A stretch of DNA of 64,000 nucleotides from an uncultured Planctomycetia bacterium (GCA_964422295.1 CAYRAM010000015.1:3272-67271), one strand, 5' to 3'. Positions 27,176-61,455 are shown, numbered from the stretch's first letter. Notes: generated from the sequence alone by a model not told the origin. Made by a program: numbers and translations.

Positions 27176-30010
27176 ATGAAATTCACGCTGGTTCAGCGAA
27201 ATTGTAAGAACTCTGTATCGATTGCAGCAAAGATCTGTTGCAGCAATCTTAGGGTAATTTCACGTTCAAGTTTTATATGGCTGGTATTGGCACTTTCCCT
27301 CGGGGTTCCTTCCCTTTCTGAAGCGGCCGGGAAACATCTGCGAAATTTTGCTCCAGGGCCGATCGCAGACTCTCTTGCTGCGGCGGCATTGGTCGATGCG
27401 ACCCACACCCTCGGGGGGCCGACAGCATCCACACTCGAATTGGATTGGGTGAGGGAAATCCCTGACCGCGGTGTTCAATTGGCGTGGAAACAATCGTTGG
27501 GTGGAATCCCTGTCCGCGAAGCGATCGGCCGTATGTGGTTGATTCCGGTGGGATCCGGTTCTTGGCAATGCCATTATCGGGCATTTTCATGTATTGCTTG
27601 GCAAGAGCCGCACTCACCAGATGCCCTCGTATCCGCAGATACTCTCGACCCCGGTCTTCAATTTTCGGGACGGATTTGGAGTAAACCAGTACTCGAGTAC
27701 GTGATGGGGGAAGGTACACAGGCTCAACTGGTCTGGGTCACCCATGGAACTTCTAGAGATGAGAGCCTCCACAGTACTTTACGGATCGATTTCTCTGCGC
27801 TGACCGGTGAAAGGTTGGCGGTGGAGGAAGTCGTTTGCTCACTCGATGTCAGTGGGTCGATCTTTGCCAATCGCACACAAGGCACTGGACCCCAGGGAAG
27901 CGCAGGGAACGGCATTCAGCCGACCAGCGGAGTGCGCGTCACTGGTGGAGGATCCGTGACCCATGCGGATGTCAATGGCGATTATTTCCTGTCTTCCGGT
28001 CAAACCAGTTATACGGTTCTTGCCGAACTCGAAGGAGTCTGGGGAAGCGTCAATAGTTCGGTTGCAGCAAATGTCACCGCTTCCGCACAAGCGAGTTCCG
28101 GCACCCTTGATATCGTCATGGATGGCAATGGAGATGCAAATCTCACTGCCCAATTGAATGCGTTTCATTATGTGGACCAAGGATATCGACTCTTCACTGA
28201 ATCTGCAGGAGGCTTTCCCGCCATGTCTACTCCTGTCAATGCGACGACGGGGATGGCCGGCACATGCAATGCTTTTTACGATCCATTCCTACAACTTCTG
28301 CGCTTTTTGCGGGCGGGCGGAAGTTGTGTAGACAGCGCATACTCCAGCGTTGTGCTCCATGAGTTTGGTCATCACGTCGTCAACTCCCTGAACTTGGCTC
28401 AGGGTGCCTTTGGAGAGGGATACGGAGATTCCCTTGCCATCGTCTTCCTTCAGGATGGGGTGATCGGAAGGGACTTTTCAGGGCCGGGAGGTCATGTTCG
28501 AAATGTTTCTGCCTCATCGGTGACCGTGCCGTGCACCTCCAGTATTCACTTCTGTGGACAGGCACTGGGGAAATTCTGGTTCGACCTAGGGAATAACTTG
28601 CGATCAGATCTCGGCAATGTGAGTGGTCAGCAAGCTCTCGAAGAACTTTTTGTCGATTGGTCCGCCCTAACGATAGGGGGGATCAATGGATATCCCATCC
28701 GCGATGAAATGGTGCTCGAAGTATTGATCGCAGACGACATCGACAACAATCTCGCTAATGGAACACCCCATTGGAACCAGATTTGTGCTGCCGCTACTAC
28801 AGGTGGATTGGCATGCCCCGATCTCTCTACCTTGATTTTGACCCTGTTGGCGGGGCCCGGTGAATTGATGGCACCACAAGTTCCTACGCCAGTGGCCTTC
28901 TCATGGGAAGGGATCTCCTCGAGTCCTGCTGCTGGTCAAGCAGAGATTCGCTACCGGGAGGTGGGCACAACCACTTGGCTCAGTGCACCGCTCGCAGTCG
29001 TTCCTAACTTCCGACTTGAGGGAGAAATCCCTCCGCAGAATTGCCTCGTTCCCCTTGAGTGGTATGCACGGGTTCCGGACCAGGGTGGCTTCGTTACCTT
29101 CTATCCACCGCTGGGCTCCAACCAACCGCTGTCGACAATGGTTGCTACTTCAATGATCTCAGTGCTGGAAGAGCCGCTCGCAAGTGATCCGGGGTGGAGT
29201 ACATCTTTGCCTTCAGATACTGCGCTCACGGGACGATGGGAGTACGGAGTTCCCAATGGAACTGCGGCACAAGCCTCTTCGGGGGTGGCTTCCAGCGCAG
29301 GTGATTCAGCGGGATACTTCACAGGTCTTGGATTACCGGGTGGGACGATCGGTGCGGATGACATCGATTTTGGTGATACCACACTGACCTCGACCAATTT
29401 CCTCTTGGACCCATCACTTCTCTATGAAGTGAGTTACTGGCGATGGTTCTGCAATAATGCGTCAGCCAGCACACCCGATGACATCCTGACCGTTTCGTTG
29501 AGTCTCGATGGAGGCAGTTCTTGGGCGGTGATCGAGGAGATCGGCCCGGGACATCCCCATGCGGGGGGAGGGTGGTTCAAAAACTCATTTGCGATAGAGC
29601 CGGGGAGTTCGCCAGGGAACATCTTCCAATTGCGATTCCATACCGGAGATTTGGGAGCCGGGAGTATCGTTGAAGCAGGGGTCGATCTCATCGAGGTCCA
29701 AACCGTCGATTGCGAGACCACCGGGCCTCAACCCGTGGATAACGACTTCATTTCCTCTGATTGCAACGGTGACGGTGTCCATGACTTGAGTGACGTGGTG
29801 CAGGTTCTGGAGGTATTGTTTGGTGTTACCGTCGACTTTTCCTGCGAGGACGCATGTGATTCAGACGATAACGGACAGATTGATATCAGCGACGCCATTC
29901 TCTTGCTTCAAGCGCTCTTCGAAGGGGTCGGTCCCACTCTGAATGGGGTTTGTGGACCGGATTTGACGACCGATGGACTTGACTGTCAGAACTTTCCATC
30001 CTGTCCTTGA
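27176..30010 (+). CDS. Secreted gluzincin (M36/M4-like) metallopeptidase with propeptide, MAM-like beta-sandwich and C-terminal dockerin-like domain
   Basis: TCNAFYD, VVLHEFGH, GEGYGD, YWRWF, IVEAGVD, C-terminal DCNGDGVHDLSD...DSDDNGQIDISDA...CGPD...C...CP. Start uncertain (ORF track 27086). Confidence 0.8.
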   Translation: MKFTLVQRNCKNSVSIAAKICCSNLRVISRSSFIWLVLALSLGVPSLSEAAGKHLRNFAPGPIADSLAAAALVDATHTLGGPTASTLELDWVREIPDRGVQLAWKQSLGGIPVREAIGRMWLIPVGSGSWQCHYRAFSCIAWQEPHSPDALVSADTLDPGLQFSGRIWSKPVLEYVMGEGTQAQLVWVTHGTSRDESLHSTLRIDFSALTGERLAVEEVVCSLDVSGSIFANRTQGTGPQGSAGNGIQPTSGVRVTGGGSVTHADVNGDYFLSSGQTSYTVLAELEGVWGSVNSSVAANVTASAQASSGTLDIVMDGNGDANLTAQLNAFHYVDQGYRLFTESAGGFPAMSTPVNATTGMAGTCNAFYDPFLQLLRFLRAGGSCVDSAYSSVVLHEFGHHVVNSLNLAQGAFGEGYGDSLAIVFLQDGVIGRDFSGPGGHVRNVSASSVTVPCTSSIHFCGQALGKFWFDLGNNLRSDLGNVSGQQALEELFVDWSALTIGGINGYPIRDEMVLEVLIADDIDNNLANGTPHWNQICAAATTGGLACPDLSTLILTLLAGPGELMAPQVPTPVAFSWEGISSSPAAGQAEIRYREVGTTTWLSAPLAVVPNFRLEGEIPPQNCLVPLEWYARVPDQGGFVTFYPPLGSNQPLSTMVATSMISVLEEPLASDPGWSTSLPSDTALTGRWEYGVPNGTAAQASSGVASSAGDSAGYFTGLGLPGGTIGADDIDFGDTTLTSTNFLLDPSLLYEVSYWRWFCNNASASTPDDILTVSLSLDGGSSWAVIEEIGPGHPHAGGGWFKNSFAIEPGSSPGNIFQLRFHTGDLGAGSIVEAGVDLIEVQTVDCETTGPQPVDNDFISSDCNGDGVHDLSDVVQVLEVLFGVTVDFSCEDACDSDDNGQIDISDAILLLQALFEGVGPTLNGVCGPDLTTDGLDCQNFPSCP

Positions 30011-30354
30011 CGATCAGAATGCATGAAAGTATGGATGCATTTGTCTAATAATCCCCAACTCCCGAGGCGTAGGTACTATTCCATCCCCTCCGCAGGCTTT
30101 ATCATTGAGGGCGGTACACATTACCGAATTTGACAACAAATGTTTGATCCCTTTGACTACTGAGATGGACGCTTCACCGGGTAGATTCCGGGATGACTTA
30201 TCCTTGCGATATTTCTGGTGCAGCAATAGTTGCAATAGCCTTTGCTTCTACTTCCTAAAGTTCACGGGATCAGTCATAGATTTCCCTCCATGTGTGCCTT
30301 GTGTTGCTGGTTGTAATTCTACAAATGGTTAATACAGCGAGGTGGGGGGAAGGC

Positions 30355-33339
30355 ATGAAGATGGATCAAACGGGATCCTCTAGTTTGAACGATTTCGTTC
30401 AGGATGCGACCGAGGTGCGGACGTGGAGAAGCCGAGTGCTTCTTGCGATCAGTATCCTGTTGATTTCGCCATTCATGAGTGGCGTCATTTCAGCCCAGGA
30501 AGTTTCAGAATCGTCCGAATGGCCCGAGCGACCTCATGCCGAAGAAGTCGATACATCCCTGCGACATTTTCTTCAATTGCGCCCACAGGTACTGGCAGAG
30601 CGGGATGAGTTCGGCCGTCTCTACCTTTTCGGTGCTCCCTTGGCTTGGGGGCCTACCGATGAAGAATTAATCCGAAGTTTTCTTCACGATCACGCCACTC
30701 TGTTCGGGATCGCGGCCGACGATGTGGAGTTGATCTTTGCGACCGATCTTCTCACAAGGGATGCGACTGTTCTTGCATATCGACAGGTGAGGGATGGAAT
30801 CCCGGTCGAACACAGTGCCCTTCGATTTCTGACTCGGCCTGACTCCGAGACGGGTGAAAGGGTGCTAGTTTACGCAGCAGGACACATTGCATTGGAGCCT
30901 GTTGGTGGATTTGCCGAAGTCCAAATTGATAGTGAAACCGCTCTTCAGAGAGCCCAATCCCAGTGGAGGGGCTCAAGCGATTTGAAGTGGCAACCTGCCC
31001 GCTTGGTCATCGAGGCGAGTGCTTCTCGCCGCAGTGAGAGTCGCTTGGTTTACCGGATCGTTGCAACAGGGATGCGCCCCGAACAGGTCGAGGATTGGGC
31101 GATCACTGTGGATCCGGAGAGTGGGCAAATCATCGAGGTCAAGAACCAGATCCTCCACGTCGATGTCGAGGGCAATGTCTCTGCTCAGGCGACGACCGGG
31201 GATGAGCCTGATACCGCGACCAATCCGCCACAGTCGGTACCCCTAGAAGGGCTCAACGTCTCCATTTCTGGAGGTGCAAGCGCGGTTTCCCAAGCAGGAG
31301 GAGACTTTGTCATTCCCCATGGTGGAGTGGATCCTGTGCAGGTGCTGGCAAACCTCACGGGACAGTGGTGCTCAGTGATCAACATCGATGGTGCAAATCT
31401 ATCTTCCTCGTCGACGGTGACTCCCCCGGGCCCTGCAAATCTGGTGATGAATCCGGTCTACGATCCGAAGACATTGGCGGAGGTCAACGCCTACCTTTAC
31501 ACCCATTTGACCCATGACTTTATTCGGTCGAGAACGACGGGTGTCCCGGGCATCGATGTTCCCATCACCGCAAATGTCAACATCCTCGATACCTGCAATG
31601 CGTTTTTTAGCCCTGGTGAACAAAGCATCAATTTCTTCCAAGAGGGAGGAGGATGCGTCAACACCAGTTTCGCCAGTGTGGTTGCTCATGAGTATGGCCA
31701 CTTCATCGTCAATCGCCTGGGACTTGCTCAAGGGGGATTCGGTGAAGGTTATTCGGATGTCGTCAGTATGCTTCAATTTGATGATCCGATCATCGGTCGA
31801 GGATTTCTCGGCCCTGGAACCCAGGTCAGGGATCCGGTCGCAGCAAATATCCAGTACCCCTGTCCGAGCACATCAGTTCACACCTGTGGACAGATACTCG
31901 GTTCAGTCTTCTGGTTGATCCGGGAAGGATTCGGAACGTTGCTGGGATCCCAGCAGGGCTTGGAAGTCACTCAACAGCTCTTCGTCGATTGGTCATTGGT
32001 AACCATCGGTGGTGTGGGTGACTCCAGTGCGCATCCGGAGACAGCCATTGAGATTTTGACTCTGGATGACAACGACGGGAATCTTGGGAATGGAACCCCC
32101 AACTTTCAGATGCTCTGCGATGTCTTCACCAACCATTCCATCGATTGCCCAATTCCACCTCCGTTGACGCTGGTGCTCCCGGAGGGTTTGCCGGGGAACC
32201 TGGCTCCCAATGTCGCAGAATCGATCAGGATCTCTGCCCTCCCTGGAACGACGCAGGTGGACACCGGATCTGGACAATTGATCTTCCGGCAGGGAAGCAC
32301 AGGAATCTTCAGTATCGCTCCCTTGTCTTGGCAAGGTGGAGCCGATTTTATTGCCGATCTCCCTGGCCAGGGTTGTGGTGAGCCTGTGGAACTCTACTTC
32401 CGCTTCCTCGACCTTCAGGGAACGGAGCATCTGTTGCCTTCCGAGGGATCGAATTCCCCCTTCAGCCTTGAGGTGATCAGTCAATTCCAGGTGACCTTCA
32501 GTGACGACATGGAAACCGATACCGGTTGGTCGGTGGGTGAGCCCACCGATACAGCGACCACAGGAATGTGGGTGCGGGTTGATCCGATAGGAACCGCTGC
32601 GCAACCCAATGGCGGCCATGGGACAGGTGGTGGTTTGGCGTGGATTACCGGACAGGGTACGGTGGGTGGGTCATTGGGTGAAAATGACGTCGACGGTGGA
32701 GAAACGACTTTGAAGTCACCGGTGTTTGATTTGTCCGGATTTGTCAATGCGATCGACCCCGTGGAGATCTCCTATTGGCGTTGGTTTTCCAATGGCACTG
32801 GCGCATCTCCGTACACCGATACTGCTCGCATCGAGATCACGAACGATTTGACCACATGGGTGCCGGTAGAGGTACTTGGGCCTCTGAGTGGTCCTGATAC
32901 CAATGGCGGCTGGGTTTTCCATTCATTTGATATCACCACTTTCGTTCCCTTCTCGTCGACGATGCAAATGAGATTTGCCGCTTCTGACAATGACCAGGGA
33001 TCCATCGTTGAGATGGCCATCGATGATTTTCAAATCTCGCAGAAGATTTGCTTTGAAGGCCCCATCTTCAGGCGAGGAGATGCCAATGCGGATGGAAGTG
33101 TCGATGTATCCGATGCTGTGATGGTACTTCAGTATCTGTTTGAGGGTGCTGTCCTCACTTGTATCGATTCAGCCGATATTGGGGACAATGGAAGTGTCAA
33201 TATCGCTGATCCGGTGGGGATCGTCGGGTTTCTCTTTGGGGGTGGAGCACCACCGGCTGAGCCATATCCTGCATGTGGAATCGATCCCACGGACACCGAT
33301 GGATTGCCGGATTGCCAGTCGCACACAAATTGCCCCTGA
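30355..33339 (+). CDS. Paralogous secreted gluzincin metallopeptidase (FTP/PepSY-like propeptide, MAM-like, dockerin-like)
   Basis: YRQVRDGIPVEHS propeptide, TCNAFFS, VVAHEYGH, GEGYSD, ISYWRWF, IVEMAIDD, FRRGDANADGSVDVSDA...CGIDPT...CP. ATG 30355. Confidence 0.85.
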   Translation: MKMDQTGSSSLNDFVQDATEVRTWRSRVLLAISILLISPFMSGVISAQEVSESSEWPERPHAEEVDTSLRHFLQLRPQVLAERDEFGRLYLFGAPLAWGPTDEELIRSFLHDHATLFGIAADDVELIFATDLLTRDATVLAYRQVRDGIPVEHSALRFLTRPDSETGERVLVYAAGHIALEPVGGFAEVQIDSETALQRAQSQWRGSSDLKWQPARLVIEASASRRSESRLVYRIVATGMRPEQVEDWAITVDPESGQIIEVKNQILHVDVEGNVSAQATTGDEPDTATNPPQSVPLEGLNVSISGGASAVSQAGGDFVIPHGGVDPVQVLANLTGQWCSVINIDGANLSSSSTVTPPGPANLVMNPVYDPKTLAEVNAYLYTHLTHDFIRSRTTGVPGIDVPITANVNILDTCNAFFSPGEQSINFFQEGGGCVNTSFASVVAHEYGHFIVNRLGLAQGGFGEGYSDVVSMLQFDDPIIGRGFLGPGTQVRDPVAANIQYPCPSTSVHTCGQILGSVFWLIREGFGTLLGSQQGLEVTQQLFVDWSLVTIGGVGDSSAHPETAIEILTLDDNDGNLGNGTPNFQMLCDVFTNHSIDCPIPPPLTLVLPEGLPGNLAPNVAESIRISALPGTTQVDTGSGQLIFRQGSTGIFSIAPLSWQGGADFIADLPGQGCGEPVELYFRFLDLQGTEHLLPSEGSNSPFSLEVISQFQVTFSDDMETDTGWSVGEPTDTATTGMWVRVDPIGTAAQPNGGHGTGGGLAWITGQGTVGGSLGENDVDGGETTLKSPVFDLSGFVNAIDPVEISYWRWFSNGTGASPYTDTARIEITNDLTTWVPVEVLGPLSGPDTNGGWVFHSFDITTFVPFSSTMQMRFAASDNDQGSIVEMAIDDFQISQKICFEGPIFRRGDANADGSVDVSDAVMVLQYLFEGAVLTCIDSADIGDNGSVNIADPVGIVGFLFGGGAPPAEPYPACGIDPTDTDGLPDCQSHTNCP

Positions 33340-33367
33340 TTCAGGACATGACACTGATGGAATCACC

Positions 33368-33763: not shown

Positions 33764-33765
33764 GA

Positions 33766-34209: not shown

Positions 34210-34398
34210 GTTTGGGTCGGGAGAATTCAATCGACATCTCCGATCTGGTTAGTCTATCCCATTTGAAATCTCTGGTGCACGTGTCATCATTCGGGCGCTG
34301 CAGTTCCAAAAACGACTTGGGAGGCTAAGCTCTCCAAGTCAGTGGATGACATCACAGGATGACCTGAATCGGAAGCCAATTTTAATTCCGGAGGTAAT

Positions 34399-35067
34399 TT
34401 GCCGAGCGAGTCGGAAGAGAACTACCTGAGGGCAATTTGGAAACTGGCAGGAGATGATCCTGACGAGTGGATTCCTACGGGGATGGTCGCTGAAAGGGTG
34501 GGGGTTTCCCCGCCATCTGCAACCAGCATGGTTCAACAATTGTGCGAGAGAGGTTGGCTCAATCACAAGAGATACCACGGTGTTTGTCTGACCGCTGAGG
34601 GTCGGGAGTTGGCTTTGCAAACAGTGCGAAGGCATCGCATTCTCGAAACATATCTCGCCAAAATTCTCGAAGTTCCTTGGGACAAGGTTGATTCAGAGGT
34701 GGAGCGCCTCGAGCACTCAGTCAGCGAGGAACTGATCTGCAGAATGGAAGAAGCACTCGATTTTCCCGATCGGGATCCACACGGGTCCCCGATTCCAGAT
34801 CGTCAGGGGAATCTGCCAAGTTCCAAGGACTTGTATTTGTTTCAGGCTCCCCTGTCCATCCCATTGGAGGTGGTCAGGGTGGTCGATGCACTGCCGGAAG
34901 TGTTGAACTGGCTCGGTGAGAGGGGTGTCAAGCCTGGAGTCACGGTGACTATTGAATCAAGGGAGCCTGGCGGGGGGCCCGTTTTATTGGGAGTCCCGGA
35001 TGGTGACCGGTCATTTGCGATCAGTGGGGAGTTGGCCAGATCCATCTGCGTCAAGGAAATCAACTGA
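34399..35067 (+). CDS. mntR: DtxR/MntR/TroR family metal-dependent transcriptional repressor with FeoA domain
   Basis: SEENYLRAIW, VSPPSATSMV, LTAEG...VRRHRILETYL, EVERLEH, DPHGSPIP; TTG start after GGAGG. Confidence 0.93.
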   Translation: MPSESEENYLRAIWKLAGDDPDEWIPTGMVAERVGVSPPSATSMVQQLCERGWLNHKRYHGVCLTAEGRELALQTVRRHRILETYLAKILEVPWDKVDSEVERLEHSVSEELICRMEEALDFPDRDPHGSPIPDRQGNLPSSKDLYLFQAPLSIPLEVVRVVDALPEVLNWLGERGVKPGVTVTIESREPGGGPVLLGVPDGDRSFAISGELARSICVKEIN

Positions 35068-36336
35068 TGGATCAGATTCATCAGAGTTGTGTATTTTTTC
35101 AGGAGGATGATGCTGTTGAGAGGAAGTGACGTCCTCGTCCTCGAGCATGACCATCAGGGATTCGTCCAAGTGGTGCTCGATCCGATGGGCAGGCTCTTCC
35201 AGGTGATCCGGAGGAAGGCCCAATCGTTCCGCAGCAAATCTTTGCCAGAGGCTACGTTTGCGCAGCAGCGTCTTGGCGATCCTTTTTCCTCGCCCTTGAG
35301 GTATTCCATTGCGAATGAAACCCATTAATCCCAACTGAAGGTATGCAAACCCTGAGATGCTGACCAGACCCGGTGATGCCAGTTTTTCTCCGGTGTTTGC
35401 GAGTTGGAGTGCATCTGCGAGAAGATCTTCTCTTGCAACTCTCAATCTCCACAAGAGCAATCTCGAAGCAACAGGGATGACTCCGCGGTTTGGCGCAAAA
35501 ATTACACAGACAAGCAACAGCACACCAGCAGTGACAGCGATCATTCCCGGTACGTTTGTGTCCACAAAATGAATGGCAGCAAATGTACCCAGCAAAGCAG
35601 ATATGACCCCAGTCAACCCACTGACCAGCATCATTGCTCCAAATCGGTCACAGAGAATGCCGGCGATGGTCGGCGGTACCGCAATCATCGCCACGACCAG
35701 AATCGAACCAACCGCTTCGAAACATGACACTGCAGTAATTGCGACAAGGATGAGAAGTCCGCGTTCCAGGGTTCTCACCGGCAGGCCCATCGACCTGGCG
35801 AGAACGGGATCGAACGCACAGATCTTCCATTCTTTCCAAAAAATGAGCAGAGCGGTCAAGTTGAGAAGGAGTGCCAGTGAGATTGAGACGATGGATCTTG
35901 GGAGGGAATATCCAAAGACATCCATCCTTTGAAAGTGAGTAAACTCGATCAGGCCATGCAATACGCAACTGGGATCGAGGTCGATTTCACGGGTGTACAT
36001 TTCAATCAGAATGATCCCCCCTGAAAACAGGGTTGTGAAAACAACTCCAAGGGCTGCTCCCCCGTCCATTTCTGCGCGATCTCTCAACCACTCTGCCACC
36101 AGCGAAAGGAACAAGGCTGCGATGACTGCGCCTGTAAACATGGGAGCGACTTCTCTGCTTCCCGTGAAAATGAAACCGATGATGAGCCCAGGAACAACTC
36201 CATGGGCGATAGCGTCACCGAGCATGGCGCGATTTCTCAAAGTCAGGTGGACCCCTACGATGGAGCAGGAAAGTGCCGCCAGAACAGCGACGATATAAAT
36301 GTCCAGCATCGCAGGGTTGAGCAGGATCTCCATCAT
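35011..36336 (-). CDS. Mn/Zn/Fe ABC transporter permease (TroD-like) with C-terminal DtxR-like tail
   Basis: AMLGDAIAHGVVPG, EAVGSILVVAMIAVPP; tail RKRSLWQRFAAERLGL...AHRIEHHL. Confidence 0.9.
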   Translation of the reverse strand: MMEILLNPAMLDIYIVAVLAALSCSIVGVHLTLRNRAMLGDAIAHGVVPGLIIGFIFTGSREVAPMFTGAVIAALFLSLVAEWLRDRAEMDGGAALGVVFTTLFSGGIILIEMYTREIDLDPSCVLHGLIEFTHFQRMDVFGYSLPRSIVSISLALLLNLTALLIFWKEWKICAFDPVLARSMGLPVRTLERGLLILVAITAVSCFEAVGSILVVAMIAVPPTIAGILCDRFGAMMLVSGLTGVISALLGTFAAIHFVDTNVPGMIAVTAGVLLLVCVIFAPNRGVIPVASRLLLWRLRVAREDLLADALQLANTGEKLASPGLVSISGFAYLQLGLMGFIRNGIPQGRGKRIAKTLLRKRSLWQRFAAERLGLPPDHLEEPAHRIEHHLDESLMVMLEDEDVTSSQQHHPPEKIHNSDESDPSVDFLDADGSGQLPTDRK

Positions 36337-37544
36337 GGAGAGTCACCGAGGTTTTTGGGTATCTCCCTGCTCCTGCGGTCGAGTAATTTTTCGATATCTT
36401 CCTCGTCGAGGTCGATCAAATTACGATCGATTTCTGCTGCGCTGTCGAGCCACTCTATCCAACGATTTCGTGCCGAGATTGATCGCTCTGCCCGGCTGAT
36501 CCCTTTGGGTGTCAATTTCAGATGGGTGCCCGCCTGTTCCACATATCCAGACAAGATGCATAACCGCAATGCAGATACACTTGCTCCCAAAGAGCCGGCT
36601 AGAATTCTTTCGCGGGCAACGAAGTCGTTCCCGCTGTACAGATTTTCATGGAGAAAAATCAGGATCCGCTGCATTTCCCTCCGCTGTTGTCGGCGTATCC
36701 ATCTCAGCCTCCTTCCGAGCAATCCTTTGTGTGGAGCGATGACCAATGAGATTGCAAACAAGGTTGCGGAGCAGAGAACGATGACTGGGCCAGTGGGCAG
36801 GTCCAAGCGCTGTGAACTCAGCAAAGTCCCCGAGATCCCTGCGAGGGCACCCAAGAATGCGCTGATGGCGAGAAGGTGAGTGAATCGATCAGTCCAAAAT
36901 CGTGCTGTGGCCGGAGGTATTACAACGAGTGCAGCGGTCAGTACCACTCCAACCGCGGGGAGAGAGATGACGATTGTGATCGCCAATAAGAGCATGACCA
37001 ATAGATCGATAATCCCCATCGACAGTCCGGTTCCCTTGCCAAAGGTGCTGTCGAAGCAGCTGACCAAAAACTCTTTGTGCAAGAGAACCATCAATGCACT
37101 GACAATGACTGCAACAACCGTAATCGTGATCGCTTCCTGTTGCAGCATTCCGGCTGCTTGCCCGAAGAGGAAGTGATCGAGACCTGCAGAATATGCGCCC
37201 GGGCTAGATCTTTGAGCGATACTCAACAGTGCAATCCCCGACCCAAAAAATATCCCGAGTATCGATGCGGTTGCGGTGTCTGGCCTGATTCTGGTCAAGA
37301 CAGGGAGCCGCGAGACGAGGACAGCGGCAAGCAGTGTCGTGAGGAGTGCTCCAGCACCCAAGGCCCAATATTCTTGGCTTCCTGCGATCAAGAAACCGAG
37401 AACGATTCCTGGCAAGGTGGAGTGGGCAAGTGCGTCAGCCAGGAGTGCCCGCTTTCGCAACAAGAGCAGACTCCCTACCAGCCCACAGCATAGTCCGAGA
37501 GTGGATGTTCCTACGAGGACGACAAGGGTATTGGGAAGAATCAC
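36333..37544 (-). CDS. Mn/Zn/Fe ABC transporter permease (TroC-like) with C-terminal winged-helix tail
   Basis: ALLADALAHSTLPG, LFGQAA, AVGVVLTAALVVIPPATAR; tail GYVEQ...LKLTPKG..RAERSISARNRW. Confidence 0.9.
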   Translation of the reverse strand: MILPNTLVVLVGTSTLGLCCGLVGSLLLLRKRALLADALAHSTLPGIVLGFLIAGSQEYWALGAGALLTTLLAAVLVSRLPVLTRIRPDTATASILGIFFGSGIALLSIAQRSSPGAYSAGLDHFLFGQAAGMLQQEAITITVVAVIVSALMVLLHKEFLVSCFDSTFGKGTGLSMGIIDLLVMLLLAITIVISLPAVGVVLTAALVVIPPATARFWTDRFTHLLAISAFLGALAGISGTLLSSQRLDLPTGPVIVLCSATLFAISLVIAPHKGLLGRRLRWIRRQQRREMQRILIFLHENLYSGNDFVARERILAGSLGASVSALRLCILSGYVEQAGTHLKLTPKGISRAERSISARNRWIEWLDSAAEIDRNLIDLDEEDIEKLLDRRSREIPKNLGDSP

Positions 37545-38332
37545 CGATCTCCTGCTTTCCCGATCGATCGGCCTGAGCGAATTCTTCTGACGGCTTCCGC
37601 TGCCTCATCGAGAAGAGTCAATTGACCACCATAGGTGCGCAGCAGATTTTCCCTGTTAAAGGTGGTTTTGGTTGGGCCTGCAGCCACCAATCTCAGGTTC
37701 AACAGTAGTACGTGGTCAAAGTAATCTTCGATGGTTTGCAGATCATGGTGAACGATGATGACTGTTCGTTCATCTCTTTTGAGATCGGCAAGTACAGAGC
37801 GGATGGTATCTTCAGTGGCCGCATCCACACCGGCAAAGGGCTCATCCATCAATACGATTTTTGCATCTTGGGCAAGTGCTCTGGCGATGAAGACCCGTTG
37901 TTGCTGACCGCCGGAAAGTTCGCCGATCTGCCGAGATCGATAATCCGCCATCCCGACTGCAGCAAGACACTCCAGGGCCCAGTCTCTTTGCGCTTTGCCT
38001 GGCCATCGGAACCATCCGAGTTGGCGGTAGGTCCCCATCATGACCACATCGAGAACCTGGATGGGAAAATCCCAATCAACACTTTCTCTCTGAGGAACAA
38101 AACCGATCAGTTCATCCGATTGTTCTCTGGGAACATCGAGCACCTTGATCCAGCCATTTGCGGGGGAGTGGGTACCCAAGATACACCCCAAAAGTGTGCT
38201 CTTGCCCGCACCGTTGGGACCCACGACAGCACACAGGGAGCCTTTAGGGATTTCGACGTCGATGTCCCACAGAACCGGTTTTTCACGGTAGGCCATGGTC
38301 AAATCGTGGATCTCAATGGCGGTATCAGTCAA
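37541..38332 (-). CDS. Metal ABC transporter ATP-binding protein (TroB/MntB-like)
   Basis: GPNGAGKST, LSGGQQQR, LMDEPFAGVD, VHHD. Confidence 0.95.
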   Translation of the reverse strand: MTDTAIEIHDLTMAYREKPVLWDIDVEIPKGSLCAVVGPNGAGKSTLLGCILGTHSPANGWIKVLDVPREQSDELIGFVPQRESVDWDFPIQVLDVVMMGTYRQLGWFRWPGKAQRDWALECLAAVGMADYRSRQIGELSGGQQQRVFIARALAQDAKIVLMDEPFAGVDAATEDTIRSVLADLKRDERTVIIVHHDLQTIEDYFDHVLLLNLRLVAAGPTKTTFNRENLLRTYGGQLTLLDEAAEAVRRIRSGRSIGKAGDR

Positions 38333-39333: not shown

Positions 39334-39383
39334 CTTCCGATGACGGGGGCACAGGATCAAGGTTTAACCATGGCAAAATACTA

Positions 39384-39401
39384 TTTTAGTGGAGACTAAA
39401 A
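39384..39401. promoter_or_regulatory. Candidate MntR/TroR operator (perfect 7-4-7 palindrome)
   Basis: TTTTAGT-GGAG-ACTAAAA about 50 bp upstream of the troA-like gene; TTTAG...CTAAA arms are typical of DtxR-family boxes. Confidence 0.75.
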
Positions 39402-39534
39402 CAGGGGCCCTTGATTCTGCCTTTTCTGTCGCAAATGTCATGAAAGTTGGTAATATTATCGGTATATACAAGTAATTCACCTGTCATGCATGACAAGTTA
39501 TCCAACAGGGCACCCCAGCGAGGAGAGCCCAAAG

Positions 39535-41178
39535 ATGATCGAATATGGAGGCCCGATGACGGCATCTCCCCTTATTTCTGGCCTGATGCGATCAGGACTC
39601 GTTCTGACATATTTGGTGCTGATCTCAAAGCCCGTTTTTTCTGTAGAGATACTTGTACCTCAGGATGTTGCAAATATCCCTGCAGCTGTGGAGCTCGCAG
39701 CGAACGGGGATGAGATCGTCGTCTCTCCGGGTGATTGGTCAGGCCCGATCGATTTTTTAGGGAAAAGCATCATCCTTCGATCGAGTGCAGGGCCAGATGT
39801 CACCCGGCTGGTGGGAACCGCCCAGGATTCTGTCGTAAAATTTGTTTCAGGTGAGAGTTCTCTGGCGATCCTCGATGGATTTTCCATTCACTCAGGCGGT
39901 GGCGCAGTCACTGCAAACGGTATTTGTGGCGGTGGAATTCTGATTCTTAATTCAACACCGTTAATTCGCAATTGTGTCGTCGAGGATAACTCAGCGGCAT
40001 CGGGCGCAGGAATTCATATCGAAGGCCCCACTTTTGGAGTTGTGAATCTCGAAAGTGTCACTGTTCGAAACAACTCAGCGGATGATTTCGGTGGAGGGAT
40101 TGCTCTCGTCAATAACGCAGAACTCTCCATGGTAGATTGTGTCGTCGCAGATAATTATGCAGTGGTGGTTACCGGTGGAATCCAATGCGAGGCAAGTACT
40201 CTCACCGCCATAGGGTGCACAATTTCCGGGAATACATCGAACCTGGCAGTGGGGGGAGTATGGATCTTCCTCGATTCAGAGGCGCAGTTCGTTGATTCCC
40301 TGATAGAAAATAATACCTCGCCCATCTCAGGGGGAGGAATTGTGATCTCTGACCTGGCTCGTGCGACGTTGGAAGGTTGCCTGTTCAGGGGCAACTCCGG
40401 TGGCAGTGCTGGTGGAGGAGTGATGATCGATTCCGGATCGGATCAGGAAAATCAGGTGATTCGCGGGTGCGTCTTCCACGACAACTATTCTATGAATGGT
40501 GGCGCCCATTTGGCCATCAGTTTCAATCCGGTGAGTTTGACGATCGAAAAGTGCACCTTTGGCCTCACGGCTGTGGGCAGCGGATCCGCAATCAGCGTCA
40601 ACAATGGAACTCCAGACGCAGTCTCGATCGATTCGAGTGTTGTGTTCCCGGGTCCCGTGAGTTCAATCGATGCGATTCCCGGATCCACCTTGGTGCAATA
40701 CTCCTGTGTCGAAGGTCTTCAAGGCTTATCCGTCACAGCCATCGATTCCATCGAGATCGACCCGCTCTTTTCCGATCCTGCGAATGGTGATTACACTCTC
40801 GATCCGGCATCCCCCTGCATCAACAATGGAAATCCACTGTTGCCACTGGATCCCGATGGCACCATCACGGATATGGGGGCACTCGGCCTTGCGCCTGTTC
40901 CCGTGCCCAATTTCCGCAGAGGGGATGTGGATTTTTCCGGAACAGCCAACATTGGAGATGCGATCCAGATACTGGCTTACCTCTTTGGATCAGGAGCCGT
41001 CACACCGCTCTGTGACGATGCATTGGATTGCAATGATGATGGGGCACTCAATTTGGCGGATGCCATCAGCTTACTGGCTACCCTCTTTGTTTCAGGGGAT
41101 CCATTGCCGATGCCTTATCTCGAGTGCGGGCCAGATCCGACCGACGATGGTCTCACTTGCAATTCGGATTGCCCCTGA
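39535..41178 (+). CDS. Secreted right-handed beta-helix (Pmp/pectin lyase-like) protein with C-terminal dockerin-like domain
   Basis: Repeated N.S...GGGI units, IDPLFSDP..GDYTL...SPCIN.G....DPDGT..DMGA, then FRRGD...CGPDPT...CP. ATG 39535 with GAGGAG RBS. Confidence 0.82.
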   Translation: MIEYGGPMTASPLISGLMRSGLVLTYLVLISKPVFSVEILVPQDVANIPAAVELAANGDEIVVSPGDWSGPIDFLGKSIILRSSAGPDVTRLVGTAQDSVVKFVSGESSLAILDGFSIHSGGGAVTANGICGGGILILNSTPLIRNCVVEDNSAASGAGIHIEGPTFGVVNLESVTVRNNSADDFGGGIALVNNAELSMVDCVVADNYAVVVTGGIQCEASTLTAIGCTISGNTSNLAVGGVWIFLDSEAQFVDSLIENNTSPISGGGIVISDLARATLEGCLFRGNSGGSAGGGVMIDSGSDQENQVIRGCVFHDNYSMNGGAHLAISFNPVSLTIEKCTFGLTAVGSGSAISVNNGTPDAVSIDSSVVFPGPVSSIDAIPGSTLVQYSCVEGLQGLSVTAIDSIEIDPLFSDPANGDYTLDPASPCINNGNPLLPLDPDGTITDMGALGLAPVPVPNFRRGDVDFSGTANIGDAIQILAYLFGSGAVTPLCDDALDCNDDGALNLADAISLLATLFVSGDPLPMPYLECGPDPTDDGLTCNSDCP

Positions 41179-42188: not shown

Positions 42189-42246
42189 TTGGCGTGTTAA
42201 ACTCTGGATATGATGGCTTGGCTTGTGGAAGATATCTGCGGAAGAA

Positions 42247-47821: not shown

Positions 47822-50460
47822 TCTGCCCCCTTATTCAACGATTCGTCGGTCCAGGGCAATCTCCGATCGGCGGTCATCTGACGGATCTTTGTTACCAATT
47901 CCGGTGACACCGGATTCCCGGTATGTCCCCACTGCCTGCGCAGCCATGTCAGCAGACCAGCGATGTCATCGTCCTTCAGTTTGGGGTTTTCCCGATGGCC
48001 GGGCATCGTCAGATCCCAGTGTTCACCCGACACCGTGATGGGACCGGTCAAACCATCGAGGATGATCTTGATGGGGATGGGGTCTGCGCCCAAAAGCCAG
48101 GGGCTATCGAGCAGGGTTGGTCCCAATCCCGGCAATCCTTGGCCTCCCGCGCCGTGACAGGCTGAGCAGGAAGAAGCAAAGGCCCGGGCCCCGGCTTTTG
48201 CCCACCGACGCTCCTCTTCACTCCATGGTTTCAGGTCCGGAGGAGGAGAATCGGATTTCTTGAGGTGGGTGATGATCGTTTCGGCAGGGGCTTTGAGATC
48301 CCTTGGCAAATCTGCCCTCTGCAGCACTTCAGGCAGAGTCGAAATCGGTGGTGGTGCCCAACGTTTTTGAGTCATTACAAAATGAAGCCCTGAGATCACC
48401 GCAGCAAATCGTGGGTCGTCGGAAGCCAACTCTTCGAGCATGGCGAGGATGAGCGGCAAGGAGTGAGGGTCTTTGAGCAGGGCAGATCGAGTCAACTCAT
48501 TTACCAGCGGGACGAAGGCGGAAGTGCCATCGACAGGAAATTCGGCGGCAAGAAATCGTGACAGTCTTTCCACTTGATAGTCGTCCCATTGGCTGAGAAC
48601 CGCCATGCGGATCTCCGCAGCGTGACCATTCCTTTTCAACAGGGCGATGACCGAATTCAGAGCTTCCTCATTTTCCTTCAGAGAAGCGAGAGCCAGCGCT
48701 CTGTGCAGAATCTCCAAGGGTGTCAAAGATCCACTCGGTTCCATTGGTTTGAGGAGCAGAGGTAGGCAGACCTCCCATTCGGGGTGGCTCTGTGGATTCT
48801 CTGCGAATACCTGACATGCGCTGCGTCTGAGCAGTGGATCGTCAGAGCCAAGGGCGTTAGCCAAGTCTCCGGGAAGCAATGCACCGAGACCATCGAGGAT
48901 TCTGAGGGCATGGATGCGGGCCGTGACCGGCGCGGAATCCTGGGCGAGCAGTTGCTGCAATTCACCGACTTCCGCGGATGACCCCGCTTCGACAAGCAAT
49001 CTTTGTGCAGTATCACGAATCCAGCCGACAGGATGGCTGAGTGCTTTGATTTGGCCGCCCGGTTCTGAAAGCAGTGGCAGGCCTTCCGGTGCCGGAGTGG
49101 CATCGAAATCATCCGGGTTGCGAACAATTCGCCAGATTCTCCCAAGGCCCACAGGTTCGGCGAGTCCTCTCTCCTCGATCTGTTTGCGCAGATAGGTGGT
49201 CACAAATTGGCGGTGTTGGATGATCCCTCGATACATGTCTATGACGTAGAGGTTTCCATCCGGACCCAACTTGGCATCGACGGGTCGAAATCTTTCATCC
49301 GTCGAGGCGAGGAAAGCCTGTTTCCCATACACAGTGTGGGGCCAGACCAATTGTTGACCTCTCATCCTGAAGTCGATCTCTTCCATCAAGAATGCAGCGA
49401 CAAGATTGCCCGCGGCTTCCGGAACGAAGGTGATGCCGTTCCATTCGGGACCCCAGCGATCGCTGCGCAAAATGGCGATCCCCGAGGCGGCCGTGTTTCT
49501 GCGCAAGCGACCATCCGGGCGCAGCATCGGTGGCTGATAACCCCGATTGATTCCGGGGTTTACACGCACGGGGAAGGTCGATGGATCAGGGACGACGGTG
49601 TGTCCCGATCGGGCAGGTTGTCCGATGATCCGTCCACACCAAGGATTGGCGAGGAGGAGATCGGTGGGGAGAGAGTCCGCCAGAATCCAGGTCGAGTTGT
49701 GATTGAAATAGAGTCTCCCATAGTCGTCTTGGGCAAGGCCCCATTGCCCCCTGAAAGCCGTGGAAGACTCCTTCAGCTGTGGTTTTTCGCCGACGACGTC
49801 AAAGCGAAACTTGCGACTGCTCTTTGAGTTGTAAATCCAGTTATCGAGGGAGTGGATCAGACCATTGTCCGTATGTTCAACGTGATCGGGATTATCGGTG
49901 CCATAGTTCGTGAGTGAAGTGCGACGGTCACAACGAAGATCCCCATCAAGATCCTGGCAGTACCAAAGGTGGGGAGGCTCGCCGATGAGAACTCCTCCTT
50001 CGACGATGGCGATGGCCCTCGGATTGACCAATCGGTCGAGGAAGAGGTGACTGGTTTCGTAGTGCCCATCACCGTCTTTGTCTTCGAGGACGACCACCTG
50101 TCCCACAGGTTCGGTTTCCCCATCTCCATCGACTGTGGGCATGTAGCCGCGCAGTTCCACCACCCACAGCCGACCTCGCTCGTCCCAGGCCATGGCGACC
50201 GGATCGACCACTTCAGGTTCGCTGGCAACCAGCTCTACCGAGAAACCTGGGGCGATTTGAAACGCCTCGATCGCATCCGCTGGAGAAAGGACCGGGGCAG
50301 GTGGAACACTCCACTGACGCCAGTTTTCTTTTTGGATCTCTCCTTGCCGATCTCCATTCTGCGCATGTGCATCAAATGGCATGATCAGCGACACAAAGAG
50401 TGCGCCCAGCCACACTCCCCGAAGGGGGGCGGCACAAGTAACCCGCGGCAATTTGCTCAT
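47818..50460 (-). CDS. PVC-type membrane-bound dehydrogenase-like protein (beta-propeller + HEAT + cytochrome c)
   Basis: GFSVELVASEP.VVDPVAMAWDERGRLWVVE, FRPVD..LGPDG.LYVIDMYRGIIQH, GRIWRI, heme motif CSACH, GPTL, LTMP. ATG 50460. Confidence 0.88.
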   Translation of the reverse strand: MSKLPRVTCAAPLRGVWLGALFVSLIMPFDAHAQNGDRQGEIQKENWRQWSVPPAPVLSPADAIEAFQIAPGFSVELVASEPEVVDPVAMAWDERGRLWVVELRGYMPTVDGDGETEPVGQVVVLEDKDGDGHYETSHLFLDRLVNPRAIAIVEGGVLIGEPPHLWYCQDLDGDLRCDRRTSLTNYGTDNPDHVEHTDNGLIHSLDNWIYNSKSSRKFRFDVVGEKPQLKESSTAFRGQWGLAQDDYGRLYFNHNSTWILADSLPTDLLLANPWCGRIIGQPARSGHTVVPDPSTFPVRVNPGINRGYQPPMLRPDGRLRRNTAASGIAILRSDRWGPEWNGITFVPEAAGNLVAAFLMEEIDFRMRGQQLVWPHTVYGKQAFLASTDERFRPVDAKLGPDGNLYVIDMYRGIIQHRQFVTTYLRKQIEERGLAEPVGLGRIWRIVRNPDDFDATPAPEGLPLLSEPGGQIKALSHPVGWIRDTAQRLLVEAGSSAEVGELQQLLAQDSAPVTARIHALRILDGLGALLPGDLANALGSDDPLLRRSACQVFAENPQSHPEWEVCLPLLLKPMEPSGSLTPLEILHRALALASLKENEEALNSVIALLKRNGHAAEIRMAVLSQWDDYQVERLSRFLAAEFPVDGTSAFVPLVNELTRSALLKDPHSLPLILAMLEELASDDPRFAAVISGLHFVMTQKRWAPPPISTLPEVLQRADLPRDLKAPAETIITHLKKSDSPPPDLKPWSEEERRWAKAGARAFASSCSACHGAGGQGLPGLGPTLLDSPWLLGADPIPIKIILDGLTGPITVSGEHWDLTMPGHRENPKLKDDDIAGLLTWLRRQWGHTGNPVSPELVTKIRQMTADRRLPWTDESLNKGAD

Positions 50461-50816
50461 TCGCTGGAATCCCGCTCCTTTTTGGAACCGGTGATCTTGC
50501 GAAATCCTTGTTGCAGGATGAAGAGGGGGCCGACGAGGAGGAATCGGGGATCCTTCATGAATGAGGGACGGTTTCCTTCGATGCCGTGCCCGATAAATTG
50601 CAGGATCCAGCCACCGACGAAGAGTCCCACTCCCCACCGCCAGTCTATAAAGACCACGATCAAGGAGATCACGATGGCGGGGATGCCGATGACATGGGTG
50701 GCATGATTCAGCGGGTGTTTGTGATCGGCGTGATAGCGGTCGATCCAGCGCTGAACCGGGCGAGAGTCAGATTCACTGGCGGGCCGGGAATCGGCATCTT
50801 TTGCTTCAGGTTGCAT
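50457..50816 (-). CDS. DUF962/Mpo1-like membrane protein
   Basis: HKHPLNHATHVIGIP, GWILQFIGHGIEGNRPSF. Start ATG 50816 (GGAGG RBS) or 50834. Confidence 0.85.
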   Translation of the reverse strand: MQPEAKDADSRPASESDSRPVQRWIDRYHADHKHPLNHATHVIGIPAIVISLIVVFIDWRWGVGLFVGGWILQFIGHGIEGNRPSFMKDPRFLLVGPLFILQQGFRKITGSKKERDSSE

Positions 50817-53161: not shown

Positions 53162-53179
53162 CGATGGAGAGGAGGACCG

Positions 53180-55950: not shown

Positions 55951-55952
55951 AC

Positions 55953-58774: not shown

Positions 58775-58976
58775 GAAACTCTCCCTATGACTCGGCAGAT
58801 CCGGAATGGAGCCTCGCCGATTCATAAGAGGATCGTCCCCCTTGGCCTTGGAATCAAGCCTTCCCGAGGTTGAGTACCCTCACCACTGGCCGAAGCGTCC
58901 CGACTGTGAGACCTTGCGGGAGACAGATCGGACCCAGTTGAGACCGGGAGGAATATTGGATTTTGATCTGATAAGC

Positions 58977-59789: not shown

Positions 59790-59985
59790 AAGAGAAGGTT
59801 GTCCCCACATTCTGGTCGATTGGTGCTATGTGGACCCCCGTATCAGGAGTACCATAGATGGACGGGTCCTCTTCGGAATTTCTAATCTTGGATCCTGCTC
59901 AAATTCGCTTATCAGTTGAGCTTGGTTCAATTTTGTCATGGCTCCTGCCCGGGAGCGCCAGAAGTATCGGATACGAGGTAATTGG

Positions 59986-61455
59986 ATGAGATTTCAGCTC
60001 TCCCGTCTCTCGTGGGTAATCCTGATCTGTTTGGGGACGATGAGCCCCTTGCATGCCAAGGACTTTCTGCGCGGCGATGTCAACGAAGATGGCATTGTCG
60101 ACATCGCCGATGGCGTAAACATGCTCGATTACATGTTCCTCAGCGGATTTACCTACTGTGTGGATGCCAATGACATCGATGACGACGGCGTGGTCAATGT
60201 CACCGACGCGGTCAATTTGTTTGGATACCTCTTTACGGGGTCCAGTGCGCCTGCGGCACCCTTCACCGTATGTGGCCCTGATCCCACCCCTGATACCCTC
60301 GGTTGTGAAAGTTACGCCACTTGCACCATGGGGGATGCGATTCCGGGTCTCGATCAGCAAACTTTTGAATCTTTCATTCGCGGGCGTGTGTTGACGGCGA
60401 AGCAGTTTTCCCCGGAAGAGGGCTTGGGCCCATTCTACAATTCGGTCAGCTGTTCTTCGTGCCACAGTACTCCCGTCGTCGGAGGTTCTGCGCCCCTTTA
60501 CCGCAACTTTTACTTTGCTGCAGTTGGGCAGATGGGAAGCCAGTCTCCGATTTGGGATCCTCCAGGTGTTCCCAGCATCGTCATGCCCAGTTACACCTAC
60601 CCCTTTGGTCCACGACCAGCTTTCCCCGATCCTTCGCAGGTGGGTAATCAGCCGGTGACAGTCGCCCAAAGAAATGCTCCCCCGGGATTGGGAGTGGGGC
60701 TTTTTGAACAGGTTTCCAATCAAGAGATCGCTTCTCGTGCCGACCCCGCTGACAGTGATGGCGACGGCATTAGTGGCCGCTTCAACACCGACGGTTTCGG
60801 AAACATGGGCCGATTTGGATACAAGTTGCAGGCCAACTTTCTCGAAGCGTTTTTGAGAGGTGCCATCAACAATCAGATGGGGATCACCACTGATCCCTTC
60901 TTCGGTTCATCGGGAATCGTCAGTTCCTCCTTTATGCAGGTGGGAGCTTCCTACGACGAGCCGACGGTCGATGGAGATTCAATCGCAGATCCAGAGATCT
61001 CCGTTGAAGATTTTGGCGACATCGTCATCTTCTCGCAGTTCGTTGCGCCTCCTCCTACAGGGAGTATGGGCCCGGAGGAACTCCAGGGAGAACAAATCTT
61101 CTCCGATCTGGGTTGTGTGAAGTGCCACGTTCCCGAGATTGAATCTGCTTACGGACCTTTGTCCGCCTACACCGACCTGTTGCTCCACGATATGGGGCCG
61201 GAGTTGGCAGACGGTATCTCGATGGGAATGCCACAGTTCAGTACGAGTTCACCAAACACGACCGGTAGTGAGTGGCGTACCCAGCCGTTGTGGGGCGTTC
61301 GGTTGCATGGCCCGTGGCTTCACGATGGCCGTGCGGACACCATGCATGAGGCGATCATCCTCCACGGAGGAGAATCCGAGAGTATTCGGGAAGCCTATGA
61401 GGCATTGCCCGCCGCCGATCAAGAAGCGGTGATTCGATTCCTGGAGGCGCTGTAA
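59986..61455 (+). CDS. Di-heme oxidoreductase (DHOR-family) protein with N-terminal dockerin-like domain
   Basis: Signal peptide, FLRGDVNEDG...CGPDPT..C, then GLGPFYNSVSCSSCH, DPADSDGDGISGR, GRFGYK, CVKCH, YTDLLLHDMG, WRTQPLWG, LHDGRA. Confidence 0.9.
   Translation: MRFQLSRLSWVILICLGTMSPLHAKDFLRGDVNEDGIVDIADGVNMLDYMFLSGFTYCVDANDIDDDGVVNVTDAVNLFGYLFTGSSAPAAPFTVCGPDPTPDTLGCESYATCTMGDAIPGLDQQTFESFIRGRVLTAKQFSPEEGLGPFYNSVSCSSCHSTPVVGGSAPLYRNFYFAAVGQMGSQSPIWDPPGVPSIVMPSYTYPFGPRPAFPDPSQVGNQPVTVAQRNAPPGLGVGLFEQVSNQEIASRADPADSDGDGISGRFNTDGFGNMGRFGYKLQANFLEAFLRGAINNQMGITTDPFFGSSGIVSSSFMQVGASYDEPTVDGDSIADPEISVEDFGDIVIFSQFVAPPPTGSMGPEELQGEQIFSDLGCVKCHVPEIESAYGPLSAYTDLLLHDMGPELADGISMGMPQFSTSSPNTTGSEWRTQPLWGVRLHGPWLHDGRADTMHEAIILHGGESESIREAYEALPAADQEAVIRFLEAL

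Follow-up and report, generated by a model that had tools for sequence, protein, structure and literature searches.

The DNA analysed here, hereafter called the window, is a stretch of 64,000 nt of one strand from an uncultured Planctomycetia bacterium (GCA_964422295.1 CAYRAM010000015.1:3272-67271) with a GC content of 54%, and it encodes four secreted proteins that carry the same module of about 88 residues (87-90 amino acids, aa). In each copy a calcium-binding core of the dockerin kind is followed by a cysteine-containing tail. The explanation to which we give somewhat better than an even chance is that the four modules belong to a very large, Planctomycetota-centred subfamily of type-I-like dockerins, by which cargo proteins are docked on cohesins. 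Its most likely function is to dock proteins in a non-cellulolytic enzyme assembly, and not to act as a sorting signal.

The proposed mechanism can be outlined as follows. The cargo proteins would be exported by the Sec pathway into an oxidising compartment, where the module would fold with Ca2+ and disulfides. The tail would be pinned to the core by a near-invariant disulfide between the first and the third of the conserved cysteines (C1-C3), with a second disulfide (C2-C4) in about half of the family, the four window copies included, and probably a third in the copy of protease A. The folded module would then dock its cargo, i.e., metalloproteases, a beta-helix protein and a haem oxidoreductase, non-covalently on the cohesins of scaffoldin-like proteins, and in this way an enzyme assembly of the type called 'planctosome', non-cellulolytic and associated with the cell, would be formed.

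A Repeated Module with a Type-I-Like Dockerin Core

The four copies (Table 1) are translated in frame where the first-pass annotation, made from the sequence of the window, had placed them. Their pairwise identities are 44-47%, and 22 columns, including the four Cys, are invariant. When each copy in turn is held out, a hidden Markov model (HMM) built from the others regains it with E = 9e-18 to 4e-26, while the next unrelated open reading frame (ORF) has E >= 0.23. From this follows that the repeat is real and not a product of chance. A six-frame translation of the window, searched with an HMM from the four copies, contains no fifth copy. The copies in proteins A, B and C make up the extreme C-terminus, with final residues ..CP followed by the stop codon, and the copy in protein D starts two residues past the predicted signal-peptide cleavage site (between ..SPLHA and KD) of the ORF at 59938-61455.

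About 60 aa of the module form a type-I-like dockerin core, to which a tail of about 27 aa is added. The core consists of two duplicated F-hand segments, each with a 12-residue Ca2+ loop followed by a helix, and the loop pattern D1-x-N/D3-x-D/N/S5-G6...D12 is legible in both repeats of all four copies, except that the third loop position of repeat 2 is degenerate in copy B, where it is Gly. The Pfam family Dockerin_1 (PF00404) matches each of the four and is the best match for three of them, over module positions 4-57. The comparison with this family which the first-pass annotation had called for gives a marginal result: scored alone, the modules reach 26.6 (B), 22.4 (C), 17.6 (D) and 14.2 bits, at a gathering score of 22.9. 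Within the full-length proteins two copies score 21.5 and 18.5 bits and two have no match. Relatives with several copies of the module clear the gathering score, with 37-97 bits.

When a profile of the four copies is compared with the sequences in the PDB, the top matches are type I dockerins only, first the CelS dockerin (2mte/1daq, E 8e-7) and then, among others, 2y3n_B, 6kg9 and 4uyq_B, and these align over module positions 1-62. An AlphaFold2 model of copy B, calculated from a 123-sequence alignment, has a predicted local distance difference test score (pLDDT) of 93.7, about 84 in the tail, and a predicted template modelling score (pTM) of 0.84; it places helices at residues 14-26, 33-36 and 47-57 and leaves the tail mostly as coil. 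In a Foldseek comparison of this model with the PDB, the best 25 matches are all dockerins (template modelling score, TM, to target 0.65-0.84; root-mean-square deviation 1.3-2.5 A over 55-70 residues). Within the limits of a predicted structure, the three-helix dockerin fold of the core is therewith established, and the earlier description of the module as dockerin-like, with two Ca-binding repeats, is supported.

Thrombospondin type 3 repeats and fungal Cys-rich dockerins were considered as other identities of the module and rejected: in a Pfam scan at E<=10, the matches of the four modules are limited to Dockerin_1, EF-hand families and one DUF. The module is without a model in NCBIfam, and the tail has no counterpart in profile searches of Pfam, NCBIfam or the PDB.

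A Tail with Covarying Cysteines and Predicted Disulfides

The tail has the consensus PPxPFPxCGxDPTxDxLxCxxxxxC. C1 is located in the linker immediately before Ca loop 2, and C2, C3 and C4 are in the tail. The presence of the cysteines was compared in about 445 module instances from fetched relatives, which are not independent sequences. About 98% of the modules have C1 and C3. As to C2 and C4, 211 modules have both and 227 have neither, with only 7 modules discordant (Fisher 7e-119), so the family has a 2-Cys and a 4-Cys form. The window copies are all of the 4-Cys form, copy 1 with one extra pair. Because this covariation matches the pattern expected for bonded cysteines, we infer that C1 pairs with C3 and C2 with C4 as disulfides, which bears out the idea of a disulfide-stabilised variant in the first-pass annotation to the extent that sequence covariation can do so.

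A further, optional Cys pair occupies profile columns 6 and 37 (both present 37, discordant 22, neither 642; 3e-42). It is present in the module of protease A and of its orthologues, and its covariation suggests an optional third disulfide, Cys893-Cys924 of protease A, which would connect Ca loop 1 with the stretch that precedes Ca loop 2.

A Large Family with Varied Cargo

When 1.84 billion cluster representatives are searched exhaustively with the profile, 35,906 match at E<=1e-3, of which the weaker ones will include ordinary dockerins that match the core only; 21,389 still match at E<=1e-10, and 485 do so at E<=1e-30. The expectation of many more copies is thus confirmed for the family. 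The members that have names are nearly all called 'MAG: hypothetical protein [Planctomycetota bacterium]' (MAG, metagenome-assembled genome) and a few 'dockerin type I repeat-containing protein'. Where the protein seems to be complete, the module is placed at the N-terminus in 148 cases, internally in 109 and at the C-terminus in 210, with up to seven copies per protein.

The domains found alongside the module are diverse. They include S8 subtilase, di-haem oxidoreductase (DHOR), beta-helix, FG-GAP/VCBS, TIG, legume-type lectin, Kazal, HYR, spondin, PKD, discoidin and cadherin/Big_9 domains, as well as an RHS/YD-repeat protein and a prepilin-type protein. The DHOR protein P0318 has the same architecture as window protein D. 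The RHS/YD-repeat protein (L026 4396-10590) has 2064 aa with the module near its N-terminus, and the prepilin-type protein, P0355, has an N-terminal methylation motif and a 4-Cys module at its end. Precomputed annotation assigns the Pfam family PF28492 to P0319 and P0326, both of which are N-terminal-module proteins. Four proteins (P0123, P0125, P0146 and P0149) consist of a signal peptide and three to five tandem full-length modules only, with four or five in P0123 and P0125. Such 'poly-dockerins' could cross-link cohesins; apart from double dockerins, we know of no cellulosomal counterpart.

Cohesins in the Same Polypeptides

In the 150 best-scoring representatives, the prevailing arrangement is a signal peptide (SP), one module, a spacer of about 170-190 aa and another module, sometimes extended to three or four modules. 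The spacer is a bona fide cohesin by four lines of evidence. First, it matches the Pfam family Cohesin, for which the spacer of P0134 scores 37.6 bits against a cut-off of 24.1, and those of others 18-24 bits. Second, a profile of 15 spacer sequences has only cohesins as top matches in the PDB (3l8q ScaB, 1e-6; 1aoh CipA, 8e-6). Third, the AlphaFold2 model of P0180 (SP-Doc-Coh-Doc, where Doc is the module and Coh the cohesin) has a pLDDT of 91 and a pTM of 0.76. Fourth, this model matches about 50 cohesin structures in Foldseek, the best being 6kgc_A (E 9e-11, TM 0.81), and the matches include the non-cellulosomal cohesin 2xdh of Archaeoglobus fulgidus.

A cohesin occurs in the same polypeptide as the module in 162 of 386 fetched proteins. 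The architectures are Doc-Coh-Doc, Doc-Coh-Doc-Coh-Doc, Coh-Coh-Doc (P0282), Coh-Doc (P0291) and Doc-Coh-PEP-CTERM (P0367). One MAG (locus-tag prefix ACKVX7) encodes a Doc-Coh-Doc-Coh-Doc protein, P0141, together with the cargo-type proteins P0300 and P0379. Furthermore, the module of window protein D is 62% identical to that of the cohesin-bearing P0132, an identity above that of the window copies among themselves. From this follows that scaffoldin-borne and enzyme-borne modules are members of one family. P0367 (SP-Doc-Coh-PEP-CTERM) is a candidate membrane anchor in another organism, possibly as an exosortase-anchored cohesin. The genes around Doc-Coh-Doc proteins in three loci (L021, L022 and L030) show no obvious conserved neighbourhood.

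Docking on Cohesins versus Other Roles

The cohesin-like partner postulated in the first-pass annotation thus exists in the family, in the very proteins that carry the module, but it was found neither in the window nor in the related loci. Several observations of this kind weigh against docking on cohesins as the role of the four window modules. An HMM of the spacer, together with Pfam searches of ten further large ORFs, detects no cohesin in the window, and the spacer HMM detects none in L001-L020 or L024, of which L001-L005 and L024 are from the window's own lineage; the same-lineage DNA covered in this way amounts to about 110 kb, or a few percent of a genome. All fetched loci that do encode cohesins have a GC content of 61-67%, compared to 51-54% in the window's lineage, and are therefore from other lineages. 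Scored alone, three of the four copies fall short of the gathering score of Dockerin_1, and within full proteins all copies do. Non-cellulosomal dockerins in genomes that lack a cohesin are reportedly known in general. It is mainly because no partner cohesin was found in the 110 kb of the lineage that our confidence in docking is not higher. The window has no cell-anchoring scaffoldin, in the form of an SLH, sortase or LTD anchor, and the location may be periplasmic instead of at the surface, since cargo D has c-type haem, which matures in the periplasm.

Consider then the possibility that the dockerin fold is retained for a purpose in which cohesins take no part. The module could be a Ca2+- and disulfide-stabilised adaptor for another ligand such as cell-envelope glycan, peptidoglycan, another protein class or the module itself, or it could mainly stabilise secreted proteins at the Ca2+ level of seawater. 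In favour of this are the lack of a cohesin in the loci of the window's lineage and the huge heterogeneity of the cargo (proteases, RHS/YD, cadherin, discoidin, lectin, pilin-like proteins, oxidoreductases); proteins built from four or five tandem modules alone, such as P0123 and P0125, are atypical for enzyme-borne dockerins, and the added tail might make a new binding surface. Against such a role, the module recurrently shares a polypeptide with a verified cohesin (the 162 proteins above), modules from enzymes and modules from scaffoldins do not form separate groups by sequence, and the core is conserved with both Ca loops and both helices. A cohesin-independent role is therefore possible, with the balance leaning against it.

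The second alternative is that the module is a C-terminal sorting or secretion signal, which an export or anchoring machine would process in the manner of PEP-CTERM, the C-terminal domain (CTD) of the type IX secretion system or LPXTG. Such a role as sorting system or anchoring tag was also among the suggestions of the first-pass annotation, and it would agree with the extreme C-terminal position and conserved CP ending of three of the four window copies, and with the NCBI wording 'domain-anchored' for proteins with the sister GC-type dockerin (see below). The fourth window copy is, however, N-terminal, and in the family N-terminal, internal and tandem copies are so common, in the numbers given above, that a C-terminal tag is excluded. 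The module has, moreover, neither a transmembrane helix nor a basic tail, its fold is helical and not the beta-sandwich of a CTD, and in P0367 a true PEP-CTERM is present as an extra element after module and cohesin. All in all, the probability of a sorting signal is very small.

That the likeness of the four stretches is due to chance or to Asp/Gly-rich low complexity has a negligible probability, since, in spite of the D/G-rich composition and marginal Pfam scores, the leave-one-out E values (in the range 1e-17 to 1e-26, against at least 0.2 for the next ORF), the 22 invariant columns, the conservation of the module in orthologues, the 21,389 relatives at E<=1e-10 and the confident predicted fold all speak against it.

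Returning to docking on cohesins, its consequences would be considerable. If the four modules act in this way, Planctomycetota like this marine lineage would organise varied secreted hydrolases, adhesins and redox enzymes into assemblies, which would bear on the bacterial attack on proteinaceous particles in the ocean and would allow tens of thousands of 'hypothetical proteins' to be read as a network of interactions. To our knowledge, nearly all studies of cohesin-dockerin docking have so far been on anaerobic cellulose degraders. Most members with a single copy are missed by Pfam Dockerin_1, an annotation gap that a dedicated HMM with the tail included would close. Cohesin-dockerin pairs with disulfide staples may also provide orthogonal, oxidation-tolerant parts for designer enzyme scaffolds.

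A more far-reaching proposal, which we make tentatively and consider rather unlikely to hold, is that the Planctomycetota, marine lineages like that of the window included, have throughout the phylum an extracellular network of cohesins and dockerins that far exceeds cellulosomes in size and is also broader in function. Proteins of the Doc-Coh-Doc type and poly-dockerins would polymerise into a mesh stabilised by Ca2+ and disulfides and anchored, for instance, by Doc-Coh-PEP-CTERM proteins, and this mesh would display proteases, adhesins, RHS-type proteins and redox enzymes. The tail would be an adaptation to oxic seawater, perhaps adding a surface for specificity.

Comparison with Known Systems

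The nearest well-characterised relative is the type I dockerin of clostridia and ruminococci (PF00404; CelS/Cel48S, 2mte and 1daq; Xyn10B, 1ohz), with which the window module shares the duplicated F-hand architecture, the Ca-loop motif and the three-helix fold. Like cellulosomal type I dockerins, the module is borne on secreted enzymes, and its family co-occurs with type-I-like cohesins. It differs from them by the Pro-rich tail of about 27 aa with two or three putative disulfides, where the aligned CelS core has no Cys; by its occurrence also in N-terminal, internal and tandem positions; by its cargo, which is non-cellulolytic as the first-pass annotation had proposed; and by its hosts, which are Planctomycetota MAGs, those related to the window being marine (TMED/MCMED and marine-metagenome records). 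The non-cellulosomal cohesin and dockerin modules of A. fulgidus (2xdh) and Clostridium perfringens (2jh2, 2w1n) likewise occur outside cellulose degradation, but they belong to other phyla, lack the Cys tail and form far smaller gene families.

The C1-C3 staple could be analogous, in its stabilising role, to the intramolecular clasp of the Ruminococcus flavefaciens ScaA dockerin, described in PMC3821032 as a stabilising non-Ca element that joins the ends of the dockerin. In difference from this clasp, the link in the window modules would be covalent, i.e., a disulfide, and makes use of the added tail. The ScaA clasp is said to be formed by non-covalent stacking of N- and C-terminal residues.

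Closest in concept is the 'planctosome' hypothesis for freshwater Planctomycetes (Nemodlikiaceae), according to which Zn-dependent peptidases are tethered via Ca2+-dependent cohesin-dockerin binding (Andrei et al. 2019, ISME J, PMC6461901). In the sections of that paper covered here, the model comprises M12B and M14 peptidases, an LTD-anchored cohesin protein of 2,210 aa and a Doc-HYR-Coh adaptor. The window is similar in that it too has two dockerin-bearing Zn metalloproteases. It differs from the model, as described in these sections, in that its cargo is made up of HExxH proteases that belong to no Pfam peptidase family, a beta-helix protein and a DHOR, and in that neither anchor nor cohesin is seen in the window. 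The same sections of PMC6461901 contain no mention of a Cys-stapled tail or of the scale of the family. Later literature merely cites the term, and the planctosome is still at the stage of a hypothesis. Because the idea has already been published, the present advance is incremental, and with the NCBI names 'dockerin type I repeat-containing protein' and the sister GC-type model also at hand, the idea is less novel than the first-pass annotation assumed; what is noteworthy is how large the family is, together with its predicted disulfide staples and its Doc-Coh-Doc architectures. A literature search of incomplete coverage gave no paper that describes the Cys-stapled tail, and no match for the term 'GC-type dockerin'.

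The sister model is NF041540, 'GC-type dockerin domain-anchored protein', a dockerin variant of Planctomycetota (Phycisphaerales) that is C-terminal on homologues of proteases A and B; some of its variants are also Cys-flanked. Its repeats follow the motif 'DLNGDGxLDFFDVxxFL', and the tail of the window modules, PPxPFPxCGxDPTxDxLxC, is absent from it. Two Phycisphaerales protease homologues score 48 and 43 bits against it (cut-off 29), while the cohesin-bearing P0180 scores 11.3 bits; modules B and C have no match at E<=1, and the four full proteins none at E<=0.01. Membership of the window modules in the GC type, for which the cut-off is not reached, was therefore rejected. In L006-L020, where the Phycisphaerales homologues of A and B are found, at least three different dockerin-like C-terminal modules replace the module of the window: the GC type, a Cys-flanked 'ACPGDFNGDG...GADCP' and, in L014 and L015, a 'GDIADDFGTLGGDGMVSFGDFLALLG' repeat. 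This swapping of modules on homologous proteases supports a shared docking or anchoring role.

The Cargo Proteins and Their Orthologues

All four cargo proteins have an N-terminal hydrophobic segment of the signal type, as read from their sequences. In protein A the true start codon is probably downstream of position 27086. The identities given in the first-pass annotation stand for the beta-helix protein and the di-haem oxidoreductase, while its two 'proteases' can be specified as HExxH zinc metalloproteases outside the Pfam peptidase families: A has no Pfam family at E<=0.01, at most a weak PepSY-like match is found for the pair, and a search of B against the PDB sequences returns dockerins only. 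The claim that the four cargoes are all unrelated does not hold, as A and B are paralogues, with 32% identity between the orthologue of A in L005 and residues 1-1015 of B (full length).

Table 1. Cargo proteins and module copies in the window (positions counted from its first nucleotide)
Feature	Position	Strand	Description
Cargo A	27086..30010	+	Secreted zinc metalloprotease, HExxH...GEGYGD (motifs VLHEFGHH and GEGYGD); paralogue of B
Module copy 1	29747..30007	+	C-terminus of metalloprotease A; 6-Cys form; HMM 124.8 bits; leave-one-out E 9e-18
Copy 1, Cys codons	C1 29843-29845, C2 29951-29953, C3 29984-29986, C4 30002-30004	+	Conserved Cys
Copy 1, extra Cys pair	29762-29764, 29855-29857	+	Cys893 and Cys924 (numbering of ORF A)
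Cargo B	30292..33339	+	Secreted zinc metalloprotease, HExxH...GEGYSD; weak PepSY-like propeptide match
Module copy 2	33067..33336	+	C-terminus of metalloprotease B; 4-Cys form
Copy 2, Cys codons	33160, 33274, 33313, 33331	+	Conserved Cys
Copy 2, dockerin core	~33067-33252	+	
Copy 2, Cys tail	~33253-33336	+	
Cargo C	39490..41178	+	Secreted right-handed beta-helix protein, NosD-like; PF13229, 61.8 bits
Module copy 3	40912..41175	+	C-terminus of beta-helix protein C; 4-Cys form; leave-one-out E 3e-22
Copy 3, Cys codons	41011, 41125, 41158, 41170	+	Conserved Cys; one additional Cys, residue 514
Cargo D	59938..61455	+	Di-haem oxidoreductase or putative peroxidase; PF06537, 127.9 bits; two CxxCH motifs (CSSCH, CVKCH)
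Module copy 4	60064..60324	+	N-terminal in di-haem oxidoreductase D, after signal peptide; 4-Cys form; leave-one-out E 4e-26
Copy 4, Cys codons	60157, 60271, 60304, 60322	+	Conserved Cys

The nearest loci are syntenic and belong to uncultured marine Planctomycetota MAGs (TMED53, MCMED-G47, bin129 and SW42618_bin_2), with identities of 74-82%, and in the orthologues from these MAGs the module is kept with all its Cys. Orthologues of A are found in L001-L003 and L005, those of B in Planctomycetota MAGs with 74-82% identity, and those of C in L001-L004, where they retain the module. Between orthologues, the module is 63-81% conserved, compared to 63-82% for the remainder of each protein.

Directly downstream of D, at 61455-62603 (+), a second di-haem oxidoreductase (PF06537, 91 bits) is encoded, with its own signal segment and without a dockerin module. 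The two form a tandem pair of paralogues in which one member only is 'dockable'. The ORF at 62645-63937 (+) encodes a matrixin-type M10 metallopeptidase with a weak match to FG-GAP repeats and, again, without the module; an identical protein is encoded on a 2.4-kb contig of a marine metagenome in ENA (ERZ27248470).

Other Genes in the Window

Between the protease pair and the beta-helix gene, the region 34399-39360 encodes two permeases, an ATPase and a substrate-binding protein on the minus strand and a DtxR/MntR-like regulator on the plus strand, and from the translations it appears to be an ABC uptake operon for metal of the Mn/Zn type. At 42223-45429 (+) is the gene of a 1068-aa protein with an N-terminal FHA domain (73 bits) and a C-terminal IgA-peptidase M64 domain (79.8 bits), and it is unusual that a signalling domain which binds phosphopeptides is combined with a metallopeptidase fold of the secreted type.

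Upstream of the proteases, two adjacent, overlapping ORFs at 23968-25353 and 25341-26564 (+) contain the DPPY motifs LDPPYTADNY and IDPPYNQRQY, and, judged from the translation, look like a tandem pair of genes for N6-adenine DNA methyltransferase-like proteins. A further tandem pair of paralogues, at 18629-20587 and 20467-22335 (+), has DUF4140 and DUF4139 and a signal or anchor segment. On the minus strand, a DUF7133 and cytochrome c protein (47818-50637, 318 bits) adjoins a protein of the 3-keto-disaccharide hydrolase family (46676-47821), both without the module. The combination of DUF7133/cytochrome c with a 3-keto-disaccharide hydrolase is typical of planctomycete gene pairs for sugar oxidation.

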